A stretch of 54,876 nucleotides of DNA from a virus. Lineage: Duplodnaviria > Heunggongvirae > Uroviricota > Caudoviricetes. The notes beneath the pieces were generated by a model. It was not told the origin of the DNA and made no database searches. It was given only the letters and a program-made list of their open reading frames with translations. Position numbers and translations under genes: made by a program. Shown here piece by piece: positions 9,015 to 9,836 of the stretch (position 1 is its first letter; each line of letters opens with the position of its first letter). Location: the IMG/VR virus record IMGVR_UViG_3300030250_000013; one strand, given 5' to 3'.

Positions 9015-9836
9015 ATGGCACAGAAAGAATCTTTTGTAACTCCGGTTGGTCGTCTGGTTGGCGGTTCTTTTTTCGATATCAACACCCATGACCACGAAAA
9101 CAAACCGTTAGCACCTGAAAAACACAACTGGTGGGTTGGTCTGGCGTTTCCTAAAACAGCGGCGAACTGGTGGGAAGAACAAGGTGAACTGGGTGCGGTA
9201 TTCCAGGCGATTATGCGAGCGGCTAATTCACACTATGTGAATGGCGAACCACAACAACCTACTTTCGCATGGAAAATTATTAACGGTGACGACCCGAAAC
9301 ATGCGAGTAAAACTGGTTATGCTGGTCACTGGGTAATTGGTTTCTCACGCAACGTGGCTATTGACGCGTGTCCGGTTTATAACGCAGCGTACCAGCCAGT
9401 TATTGATAAAAATCTGGCGAAAAAAGGTTATTACTACCGTATCAGCGGATCATCTGTTGCAAACGGTCGTACAGGTAATCAGGCTGGTGTGTATATCAAC
9501 ATGGAAATGGCGCAATTGCTTTATGCAGGTGAAGAAATCATTTCCGGTCCGGCTCCTGCCTCTGTGTTCGGTGCGGCTCCTGCAATGCCTGAAGGTGCAC
9601 GTCCGATCGGCGTAACACCAGCGGCAGCACCTGTAGCAGCGCCTACACCAGCGGCAGCACCTGTAGCAGCGCCTACACCAGCGGCAGCACCTGTGAAAGT
9701 AATGACTGAAAAAGCAGGTGGTGCAACTTACGAACAGTTTATTGCACAAGGTTGGAACGATGAACAACTGATCGCTAACGGTTATATGGTAATGACCACT
9801 CCGGCCCCGAATTTTCTCAACGGTAACGGTTACTGA
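9015..9836 (+). CDS. putative ssDNA-binding protein (DUF2815-like) with C-terminal extension
   Basis: 273 aa; position between the Cas4-like nuclease and the polymerase; contains a 30-bp tandem repeat and a C-terminal motif shared with the ORF at 35977-36735. Confidence 0.4.
   Translation: MAQKESFVTPVGRLVGGSFFDINTHDHENKPLAPEKHNWWVGLAFPKTAANWWEEQGELGAVFQAIMRAANSHYVNGEPQQPTFAWKIINGDDPKHASKTGYAGHWVIGFSRNVAIDACPVYNAAYQPVIDKNLAKKGYYYRISGSSVANGRTGNQAGVYINMEMAQLLYAGEEIISGPAPASVFGAAPAMPEGARPIGVTPAAAPVAAPTPAAAPVAAPTPAAAPVKVMTEKAGGATYEQFIAQGWNDEQLIANGYMVMTTPAPNFLNGNGY
9618..9694 (+). repeat. 30-bp tandem repeat (about 2.6 copies) inside a coding region
   Basis: Unit CCAGCGGCAGCACCTGTAGCAGCGCCTACA repeated; encodes PAAAPVAAPT repeats. 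Confidence 0.8.

Follow-up and report, generated by a model that had tools for sequence, protein, structure and literature searches.

Variable in-frame tandem repeats coding for protein linkers in the genome of a Sasha-like phage

The DNA analysed here (54,876 nucleotides, hereafter called the window) is the genome of a Sasha-like phage of the genus Sashavirus (9NA-like phages). Three perfect tandem arrays, with 100% matches each, were identified in it with Tandem Repeats Finder (TRF), and each has the properties of an in-frame coding minisatellite: units of high identity, a period that is a multiple of three (30, 21 and 21 bp), a location within an open reading frame, and polymorphism (Table 1). 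[quoted passage not shown]

Table 1. Position of the arrays, their host genes and related features in the window
Feature	Position	Strand	Basis
Gene, 256 aa, PHROG 27827, function unknown, homologue of Sasha gp65	7084-7854	+	ORF list, PHROG
Degenerate old duplication, 27 bp x1.9, 76% matches	7504-7555	+	TRF
Phage-encoded exonuclease	7854-8999		
Predicted T7 gp2.5 / Enc34 ORF6-type SSB and annealing protein, 273 aa	9015-9836	+	Pfam, PHROG, fold
SSB array, perfect, in frame, 30 bp x2.7 (residues 201-227, SSB linker)	9615-9694	+	TRF
AGCACCTGTAGCA, six exact copies	9626-9638, 9656-9668, 50402-50414, 50423-50435, 50444-50456, 50465-50477	+	Pattern search
Small accessory gene, 125 aa	32165-32542	-	BLASTP to Sasha gp06
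Third array, perfect, in frame, 21 bp x2.4	32286-32336	-	TRF
gp81-like gene, 258 aa, homologue of Sasha gp81 and 9NA gp84	49845-50621	+	PHROG 25538, function unknown
gp81-like array, perfect, in frame, 21 bp x4.6	50400-50496	+	TRF

The gene carrying the 30-bp array had been labelled SSB-like from its sequence alone, and this label is upheld, as that of a gp2.5/Enc34-type protein, by Pfam, PHROG and fold comparisons. The match to Pfam PF10991 (DUF2815) is marginal (26.5 bits, with a cutoff of 26), that to PHROG 7011 has an E value of 9e-94, and the top Foldseek matches are the DUF2815 structures 4jg2 and 4klk, T7 gp2.5 (1je5) and the Enc34 SSB (5odj/5odl), with a probability of 1.0 and target TM-scores of 0.52-0.74. 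Binding and annealing of single-stranded DNA are predicted from this family and fold. In the AlphaFold model (mean pLDDT 88; >90 across residues 1-170) an OB-type core (~1-190) is followed by a Pro/Ala-rich linker and a small, confidently folded C-terminal module (~227-261), and pLDDT falls below 50 at residues 205-222, which coincide with the array. According to this model, the array, whose unit ACACCAGCGGCAGCACCTGTAGCAGCGCCT codes for TPAAAPVAAP, lies in the disordered stretch that joins the gp2.5-type core to the C-terminal module. The protein lacks the acidic unstructured C-terminal tail of the T7 gp2.5 and Enc34 kind: acidic residues number only 4 among its last 46, which adopt a confident small fold.

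In the SSB family, 80 of 120 representatives contain peptide repeats that are exact and have a period of 3-17 aa, all but one of these repeats being downstream of the OB-type core, and the length of the linker varies from 29 to 168 aa within the family. At the same position as in the window, the SSB gene of 9NA carries seven copies of a different 30-bp unit, and that of Proteus phage 2207-N35 carries 4.9 copies of a 21-bp unit coding for QQQAPVT. No kind of motif is commoner in the linkers of this family than APV and APVA; among its distant members, they occur in 75/106 and 44/106 linkers, respectively.

The gp81-like protein, provisionally labelled regulator-like from its sequence alone, matches PHROG 25538 (E 3e-165), a group without assigned function, and no Pfam family to E <= 10. 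Its AlphaFold model, built on the six close relatives that were retrieved in a large protein search, is of low confidence (mean pLDDT 50) and predicts an all-helical protein. Alignment with distant homologues distinguishes two conserved blocks, an N-terminal one of ~180 aa and a C-terminal one of ~40 aa, which are separated by the array (unit GAAGCACCTGTAGCACGAGTG, EAPVARV), a Sashavirus-specific insertion; in the same low-confidence model its residues (185-217) have pLDDT <50 and no secondary structure. The array is missing from the orthologues of 9NA, SP069, the Klebsiella phages Carvaje and phi_KPN_H2, and IMG/VR contig L115, in which a few variable residues connect both blocks, and no precursor of the 21-bp unit is found at the insertion site in these outgroups. 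Among relatives that carry the array, the unit appears as EPPVARA, EPPVARV, EPPVTRV or EPPVSRV. The sequence-only reading had described four units plus a variant at 50400-50504; the repeat is real, but the supposed fifth, variant unit is a partial one, GAAGCACCTGTA, followed by unique sequence. Its description of the encoded peptides as Ala/Pro/Val linkers is right in that they are linkers, and fits TPAAAPVAAP, but the gp81-like unit is not purely of this composition because it also contains Glu and Arg.

In the small accessory gene, for which a 21-bp repeat had also been proposed, we found a perfect array; here, as for the other two arrays, the proposed coordinates are a few bases out. Its coding-strand unit, GTTGAACCAGTAACGACTGCT (VEPVTTA), is without the 13-nt core, and the array separates the conserved N- and C-terminal parts of the protein. 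The N-terminal part is similar to 'KVHGD(K/R)YDYS' modules that are repeated in gp06, a homing endonuclease of Sasha (30-34% identity to three of these modules, E 3e-11, BLASTP), and the protein has no match in Pfam (to E <= 10) or PHROG. Among the complete genomes compared (PJ16, Bas82, AVIO78A and PDP46 being represented by partial sequences), none but the window, BDX09P1 and 536P12 has the anchors that flank this array; these are three carriers with 2.4, 3.4 and 3.4 copies, respectively. The anchors are absent from Solent, Sergei and bases 1-50,000 of Sasha.

A fourth Pro/Ala/Val linker, which the sequence-only reading had not listed, is encoded by the homologue of Sasha gp65. It is degenerate and non-repetitive, and contains GTAGCACCTGTT, which has 9 nt in common with the 13-nt core. 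The old duplication within this gene gives an identical TRF outcome (1.9 copies, 76% matches) in six relatives, and therefore this stretch is no longer variable.

The number of units in both the SSB and the gp81-like array is not invariant in related phages, the comparison by which the sequence-only reading had proposed to examine it: copy numbers of 1.9-9.7 for the SSB array and 2.6-13.6 for the gp81-like array were counted in ten sequenced relatives, as read from assemblies in which the longest arrays (285-294 bp) are possibly capped by read length. In IMG/VR contigs, the 21-bp unit is present in 3.7-6.6 copies. Solent, Sergei and Sasha, whose flanking sequences are 100.00% identical (740 nt and 670 nt), carry 2.7, 3.7 and 5.7 copies in the SSB array and 2.6, 9.6 and 13.6 copies in the gp81-like array, so that differences of up to 3 and up to 11 units, respectively, exist between phages whose flanks are the same. 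Copy number outpaces point substitution at both loci in these three phages, and the earlier suggestion that such repeats are hotspots of copy-number variation is strongly supported by the wide differences among the ten relatives. Sub-unit deletions and expansions of a 12-bp sub-repeat, both at microhomologies, were observed in BDX09P1, 536P12, PDP46 and Carvaje. Co-expansion of the two arrays was not detected (Spearman rho 0.42, p = 0.23, n = 10 non-independent genomes).

Gain and loss of units may result from slipped-strand mispairing while the DNA is replicated, or from direct repeats annealing to each other, for which the phage-encoded exonuclease and the predicted annealing-type SSB would be available. 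Since the lengths of the units are multiples of three, such events would change linker length alone. Units would be identical within one genome because of their fast turnover, and would drift between genomes. The SSB array also appears to serve as a point of crossover, at which diverged alleles of one gene, from different phages, recombine. The SSB gene of IMG/VR contig L025 is of the Klebsiella-phage type on its 5' side (95.5-95.7%) and of the 9NA type on its 3' side (97.1%), and its array is compound, with 3.4 window-type units followed by 4.2 units of the 9NA type. Judging from this one mosaic contig, recombination at the SSB array appears to join alleles of the same gene. The junction is also of the kind needed for an exchange of core and C-terminal module.

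The SSB array is older than the gp81-like array, since it is also found in the Klebsiella phages Carvaje and phi_KPN_H2, whose flanking sequences are 79-82% identical to those of the window. The unit itself is 100% identical between these phages and the window; it is more conserved than its flanks, and neutral turnover does not explain this.

When one mismatch was allowed, AGCACCTGTAGCA gave six matches in the window, all of them exact and all within the SSB and gp81-like arrays, against 0.06 matches expected by chance (shuffles). Its reading frame is the same in both genes (GCA CCT GTA GCA, coding for A-P-V-A). The claim that in-frame repeats of two genes share a 13-nt core is thus borne out, as is the description of these genes as unrelated: BLASTP between the two proteins gives an E value of 0.098, with matches in the linkers only. 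The exact 13-mer is present in every unit only in the window and in a near-identical IMG/VR contig, and in single units in Sasha and Bas82, while the run shared between the two arrays is 11 nt long in most relatives and 8 nt long in 536P12 and AVIO78A.

We propose that this core would have arisen by convergence on A-P-V-A, a motif generic in the linkers of the SSB family, favoured by local codon-pair preferences, Ala being preferably GCA when Pro follows and Pro preferably CCT when Val follows. With the arrays removed, 60% of the Ala codons that precede Pro are GCA and 51% of the Pro codons that precede Val are CCT. When the peptides were fixed and their codons resampled, the probability of a shared run of at least 13 nt was 0.003 and that of at least 11 nt was 0.029; the chance of two linker-like units having a common 4-residue peptide is 0.075. 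Without any correction, the nominal probability that a pair shares the core by chance is roughly 2e-4 to 2e-3 and, with codon context, several possible linker pairs and the generic nature of APVA taken into account, we estimate the coincidence to be ~0.5-1% likely, the shared core having been picked post hoc as the feature for these calculations. An unrelated giant-virus contig contains (GCAGCACCTGTA) x7.1.

Transfer of the core between genes is a less likely reading than convergent coding. It would imply that a short ectopic copy of the older SSB array, or gene conversion from it, seeded the gp81-like array, which later diverged and grew independently, and we regard such a common ancestry of the core as unlikely. 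The same frame and the same four codons are used in both genes, the match reaches 17/19 nt, the nominal chance is low, and outside the arrays the SSB unit finds no 13-mer match and only three 11-mer matches in the genome. Moreover, the SSB array, being older than its Sashavirus-only counterpart, has the polarity that a donor-to-recipient event requires, and the phage encodes an exonuclease and a predicted annealing-type SSB. However, nothing similar is found past the core in either units or flanks (the best extension includes two mismatches), the units differ in length (30 versus 21 bp), and the shared run is shorter in most relatives. Variants do not co-vary across the two arrays, the changes in AVIO78A, 536P12 and PDP46 being different and unlinked, and the hybrid unit GCAGCACCTGTAGCACGAG has no match in IMG/VR. 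The same 12- to 18-mers occur in unrelated viruses, the reciprocal 18-mer being present there as single copies only, and both the generic nature of APVA and the codon context raise the chance expectation. The proposal that the repeats spread between genes by recombination is therefore disfavoured. If the gp81-like array had nevertheless been seeded by the SSB array, it would represent a rare traceable jump of a linker repeat between genes.

It also seems rather improbable to us that the arrays are selected 'tuning knobs', as opposed to neutral slippage products, which in addition act as crossover points between diverged phages. If they were, the length of the SSB tether (~20-100 residues in Sashavirus, 29-168 family-wide) would set the reach of the C-terminal module towards its replisome partners, and its variation might permit escape from host defences that sense phage SSBs. 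Crossovers at the arrays would then let diverged phages exchange the DNA-binding core and the partner-binding module.

We consider it very unlikely that the repeats act primarily as DNA (as iterons, protein-binding sites or recombination hotspots), with the encoded peptide being secondary. A period of 21 bp amounts to two turns of the helix, one array lies within the gene of a predicted helical, possibly DNA-binding protein, and the SSB unit is fully conserved in nucleotide sequence between much more divergent flanks. The bottom strand of this unit contains GCTGGTGT, which has 7/8 of the bases of Chi and is a putative recombination signal; no canonical Chi site is present in the window. On the other hand, no orthologue outside Sashavirus has the gp81-like array, copy number (2.6-13.6) and unit sequence shift among close relatives, GC skew is uninformative, and protein binding is more plausible at a separate cluster of near-palindromes (49401-49820), which lies upstream of the gp81-like gene. 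No AT-rich region adjoins any of the arrays (flank GC 0.37-0.51, compared with 0.44 for the genome). Every period is a multiple of three and every array lies in a predicted disordered linker, which indicates constraint at the protein level. A role of the arrays as iterons of a replication origin was rejected on the grounds that orthologues are without the array, flanks are not AT-rich (for the gp81-like array, the 200-nt flanks have a GC content of 0.47 and 0.40) and GC skew merely tracks transcription.

An origin of the arrays, or of their number of units, in faulty assembly is scarcely credible. It is true that metagenome contigs, like the draft records of SP069 and SP-062, are broken at the SSB array, that a fold-back chimera terminates one IMG/VR contig at this point, and that the longest arrays all measure ~290 bp. 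However, the arrays of the window (80-97 bp) are well inside one read, arrays occupy the same loci in more than ten independently sequenced phages, Sanger-sequenced 9NA included, and the GenBank records of Sasha and Sergei carry the array as an annotated feature.

Read as independent in-frame minisatellites, the arrays of the window are an ordinary, well-documented case. They might serve as fast-evolving markers for typing strains of Sasha-like phages that do not otherwise differ; biocontrol or therapeutic use is under study for some of these phages. The SSB arrays (~2 to 10 units) constitute a natural length series for the effect of the core-to-module tether on replication. Short-read assemblies are interrupted by the SSB array (SP069, SP-062 and several IMG/VR contigs end inside it), and copy numbers taken from databases should therefore be treated with caution. 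These contig breaks are only suggestive of heterogeneity within one phage population.

The SSB and gp81-like arrays are already known as GenBank annotation: features named 'direct tandem repeat region' are present in Sasha (gp63 and gp81) and Sergei (gp73, gp91 and gp17), and four of them correspond to the same two genes, positions and 30-bp and 21-bp units as in the window. They differ from the window in copy number (5.7 and 13.6 in Sasha, 3.7 and 9.6 in Sergei) and in the gp81 unit, which is EPPVARA in both phages and EAPVARV in the window, while the feature in Sergei gp17 is a 9-bp array of a kind that the window does not have. The genomes of Sasha and Sergei were reportedly described by Zeng and co-workers in 2019; the repeats go unmentioned in the 9NA genome announcement and the AVIO78A paper.

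In phage lambda, the iterons of the origin lie within the initiator gene O, in the part that codes for a linker. Like the arrays of the window, they are direct intragenic repeats at an interdomain linker; in contrast to the lambda iterons, the window repeats are perfect, highly variable in number, missing in orthologues and without an adjacent AT-rich element. In-frame coding minisatellites are known in bacteria, and Ala/Pro-rich interdomain linkers occur in TonB and in the lipoyl domains of 2-oxo-acid dehydrogenases. With the former the phage arrays share unit lengths in multiples of three, slippage or unequal recombination, and homogenisation within a genome, and with the latter a semi-rigid, Pro-rich composition. 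However, whereas the bacterial minisatellites lie in surface proteins, this virulent phage has its arrays in replication and early genes.

The SSB of Escherichia coli consists of an OB core, a disordered, low-complexity Pro/Gly/Gln linker and a conserved C-terminal tip. In the phage protein too, a low-complexity linker of variable length tethers a C-terminal part to the DNA-binding core, as the bacterial linker tethers the partner-binding C-terminus; the OB architecture of the phage protein is different, however, and its linker is made of perfect DNA repeats and varies in length among near-identical genomes. T7 gp2.5 and Enc34 ORF6 have an OB-type fold and, as predicted for the SSB of the window, combine a core with a C-terminal extension, which in T7 gp2.5 contacts the polymerase and helicase (PMC5686142). 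In these proteins the extension is a short acidic unstructured tail, whereas the window SSB has a long Pro/Ala/Val repeat linker followed by a folded module of ~35 aa that is not notably acidic, and in this respect it departs from the described architecture (PMC5686142).

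The tandem arrays of the window were regarded in the sequence-only reading as hotspots of copy-number variation, and comparison with relatives bears this out. The SSB gene (9015-9836, plus strand) and the gp81-like gene (49845-50621, plus strand) share 94-97% nucleotide identity with those of Sashavirus phages, including the Salmonella phages Solent, Sasha and Sergei, the Escherichia phages PJ16, AVIO78A, Bas82 and PDP46, and the isolates BDX09P1 and 536P12. Klebsiella phages reach about 84% for the SSB gene, and two IMG/VR contigs from one sample match parts of the window at 100% and 99.7% identity.

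Tandem repeats of the window and, for the 9-bp unit, of its relatives (Tandem Repeats Finder for the window)
Feature	Position	Strand	Repeat	Encoded unit
SSB array	9615-9694	+	30 bp x2.7, perfect	TPAAAPVAAP
gp81-like array	50400-50496	+	21 bp x4.6, perfect	EAPVARV
Third array	32286-32336	-	21 bp x2.4, perfect	VEPVTTA
Degenerate stretch	7504-7555		27 bp x1.9	
9-bp array, Sergei	5593-5726			
9-bp array, Solent	5675-5910			
9-bp array, 536P12	2039-2303			
9-bp array, IMG/VR contig L040	6635-6820			

With array limits set by the unique flanks in each genome, we compared five complete or nearly complete relatives, together with the genome parts of PJ16, Bas82, AVIO78A and PDP46 that contain the SSB and gp81-like genes. 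Copy number differs widely, even between Solent, Sergei and Sasha, whose flanks are 100.00% identical (740 nt at the SSB array, 670 nt at the gp81-like array); it therefore changes much faster than bases are substituted.

Copies of the repeat unit at two loci
Genome	SSB array	gp81-like array
Window	2.7	4.6
Solent	2.7	2.6
Sergei	3.7	9.6
Sasha	5.7	13.6
BDX09P1	2.2	2.6
536P12	1.9	3.6
PJ16	4.0	5.6
Bas82	9.7	3.6
AVIO78A	9.7	4.6
PDP46	8.7	5.6

The third array was compared in the window, BDX09P1, 536P12, Solent, Sergei and Sasha (PJ16, Bas82, AVIO78A and PDP46 entering only the comparison of the other two): it has 2.4 copies in the window versus 3.4 in both BDX09P1 and 536P12, and neither Solent nor Sergei nor Sasha bases 1-50,000 yielded a match to its flanking anchors. 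Sub-unit deletions and expansion of a 12-bp sub-repeat, located at short internal homologies in BDX09P1, 536P12, PDP46 and Carvaje, are traces that would be expected of slippage. The degenerate 27-bp duplication is identical in six relatives and looks like a decayed array that no longer varies. The arrays belong to an ordinary class, that of minisatellites repeated in frame within disordered linkers, and four of them are already marked as 'direct tandem repeat region' in the GenBank records of Sasha and Sergei. A further hypervariable in-frame array, with the 9-bp unit AGCAGCATA and its variants, resides in Sergei gp17 / Solent_017 and comprises 14.6 to 29 copies in relatives; no array of this type is present in the window.

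Assemblies break at the SSB array (KC139650 / NC_042062, SP069; IMG/VR loci L016, L018, L019, L021-L023 and L026), the draft SP069 and SP-062 records have the SSB gene split there, and several IMG/VR contigs begin or end within the array. Contig L027 is a fold-back chimera, whose bases 1-95 contain 1.9 units followed by the reverse complement of window positions 9741-9778. The longest arrays all measure about 290 bp (294 bp for the SSB array of Bas82 and AVIO78A, 285 bp for the gp81 array of Sasha), which could reflect the read-length ceiling of short-read assemblies and not a biological limit.

It had also been noticed that the repeats of two otherwise unrelated genes are in frame and share a core, and Tandem Repeats Finder, pattern search and frame reading agree: AGCACCTGTAGCA occurs 6 times in the window, always exactly and always within the SSB and gp81-like arrays, versus 0.06 matches expected from shuffles, and is read in the same frame in both genes (GCA CCT GTA GCA, A-P-V-A). 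Apart from the core, the two proteins have nothing in common. The accompanying idea that the repeat has spread between genes by recombination did not hold, and we do not think that the core is evidence of such transfer, although chance is no comfortable explanation either. When codons were resampled for fixed peptides, the probability of a shared run was 0.003 for 13 nt or more and 0.029 for 11 nt or more; two linker-like units share a four-residue peptide with a probability of 0.075, and the SSB unit has no 13-mer match elsewhere in the genome. Once codon context and the existence of several possible pairs are taken into account, we put the chance of a shared core at roughly 0.5-1%, uncorrected for the feature having been picked post hoc. 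The SSB array is the older of the two, which is the order needed if the gp81-like core was copied from it in the distant past. However, the similarity stops at the core, and the exact 13-mer is found in every unit only in the window and its twin contig, and in single units of Sasha and Bas82. The gp81-like units of most relatives read GAACCACCTGTAGCA, with 11 nt in common with the SSB unit, while in 536P12 (GTAACA) and AVIO78A (GTATCA) only 8 nt are common to both arrays. Variants of the two arrays never co-vary across relatives, and IMG/VR contains no hybrid units. Moreover, core-like 12- to 18-mers are also present in unrelated viruses (e.g. (GCAGCACCTGTA), repeated x7.1 on a contig from a giant virus), and, with the arrays removed, Ala before Pro is encoded by GCA in 60% of cases versus 34% overall, and Pro before Val by CCT in 51% versus 32%. 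Weighing both sides, we consider ancient seeding rather unlikely.

The giant-virus array, (AAPV)n with exactly the codons of the core, lies in two metagenome contigs of large viruses unrelated to the window (L020, 12579-12663; L024, 1031-1115), and in the SSB array of Klebsiella phage Carvaje the 12-bp sub-unit (GCAGCACCTGTA) is expanded x3.8. The arrays are unlikely to be iterons, since the gp81-like array is absent from orthologues and extremely variable, no array adjoins AT-rich DNA, and every array encodes part of a disordered linker and has a period that is a multiple of three; GC skew was uninformative in this respect. Canonical Chi (GCTGGTGG) is absent from the 55-kb window; the bottom strand of each SSB unit carries GCTGGTGT, identical to Chi at 7 of 8 bases.

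Where recombination does act, the data point to one and the same locus, SSB, and not to exchange between genes. Upstream of its array, the SSB gene of contig L025 (IMGVR_UViG_3300030464_000003, 7317-8279) shares 95.5-95.7% identity with the Klebsiella-phage type; downstream, it shares 97.1% identity with 9NA. The array itself is compound: window-type units (x3.4) come first and 9NA-type units (x4.2) second. Because the type switches within this array, diverged alleles appear to have crossed over there, provided that the contig is no chimera. In the window and in phi_KPN_H2 the window-type unit is 100% identical, with flanks only 79-82% identical. We see no way to account for this by neutral turnover; array exchange between lineages and nucleotide-level constraint are both possible.

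The gp81-like array is a Sashavirus-specific insertion: the homologues of 9NA, SP069, two Klebsiella phages and one IMG/VR contig have no repeat between the conserved blocks, which are joined via 2-9 variable residues. PHROG, Pfam and large protein searches assigned no function to this gene; a low-confidence model of its product is all-helical, with residues 185-217 (the array) unstructured. The Klebsiella homologues (Carvaje, phi_KPN_H2) have an extra segment of ~80 residues (alignment A1 columns 129-210), apparently the central 'DVW.RF..CG…' domain duplicated within the protein. Intergenic positions 49401-49820, which separate the gp81-like gene from the small-terminase-like gene (48661-49413, minus strand), contain at least 7 copies, in both orientations, of a near-palindrome of 14-17 bp, T(G/A)CACAA(C/T)(G/A)TGCA(C/T), several at 21-32 bp spacing. 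Tandem Repeats Finder detected matching repeats at the corresponding site of 536P12, PJ16 and the IMG/VR contigs L040 and L104; these are likely candidates for operator, iteron or packaging-related sites. The N-terminal part of the product of the third gene (32165-32542, minus strand) is similar to modules that recur in the Sasha gp06 homing endonuclease, whose gene (L003, 4564-4932) contains a 204-bp x1.8 repeat (82% matches) encoding 'KVHGD(K/R)YDYS' modules; the window gene has one such module.

[quoted passage not shown] Its match to PF10991 is marginal and that to PHROG 7011 strong (E 9e-94), and the top structural matches of an AlphaFold model built from 72 family members (mean pLDDT 88) are DUF2815 proteins, T7 gp2.5 and Enc34 SSB (probability 1.0 each). 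The model is confident at residues 1-190 (core) and about 227-261 (a small C-terminal module); because pLDDT falls below 50 between them, at residues 205-222 (the array), the repeats are predicted to encode a disordered tether. The SSB array is older than the gp81-like one, and recurrent. Klebsiella phages carry the 30-bp unit of the window in 6-7 copies, 9NA has another 30-bp unit (x7.0), and the array that occupies this position in Proteus phage 2207-N35 (L123, 495-1457) is built of a 21-bp QQQAPVT unit (x4.9). In the last protein the C-terminal module is present twice (…MMPTMNDQQLITAGF… and …MMPTMSDDQLVASGF…). In 80 of 120 family representatives a peptide of 3-17 residues is repeated exactly, in all but one case downstream of the core; the linkers measure 29-168 residues, and distant members contain APV (75/106) or APVA (44/106). 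These counts point to family-wide repeat birth in the linker, with APV(A) as its commonest vocabulary. Of modest interest, then, is that across a whole SSB family the tether has acquired repeats many times over, each time independently. Enc34 ORF6 and T7 gp2.5 have a short, acidic C-terminal tail (PMC5686142); the SSB of the window, in contrast, ends in a repeat linker followed by a folded, non-acidic module.
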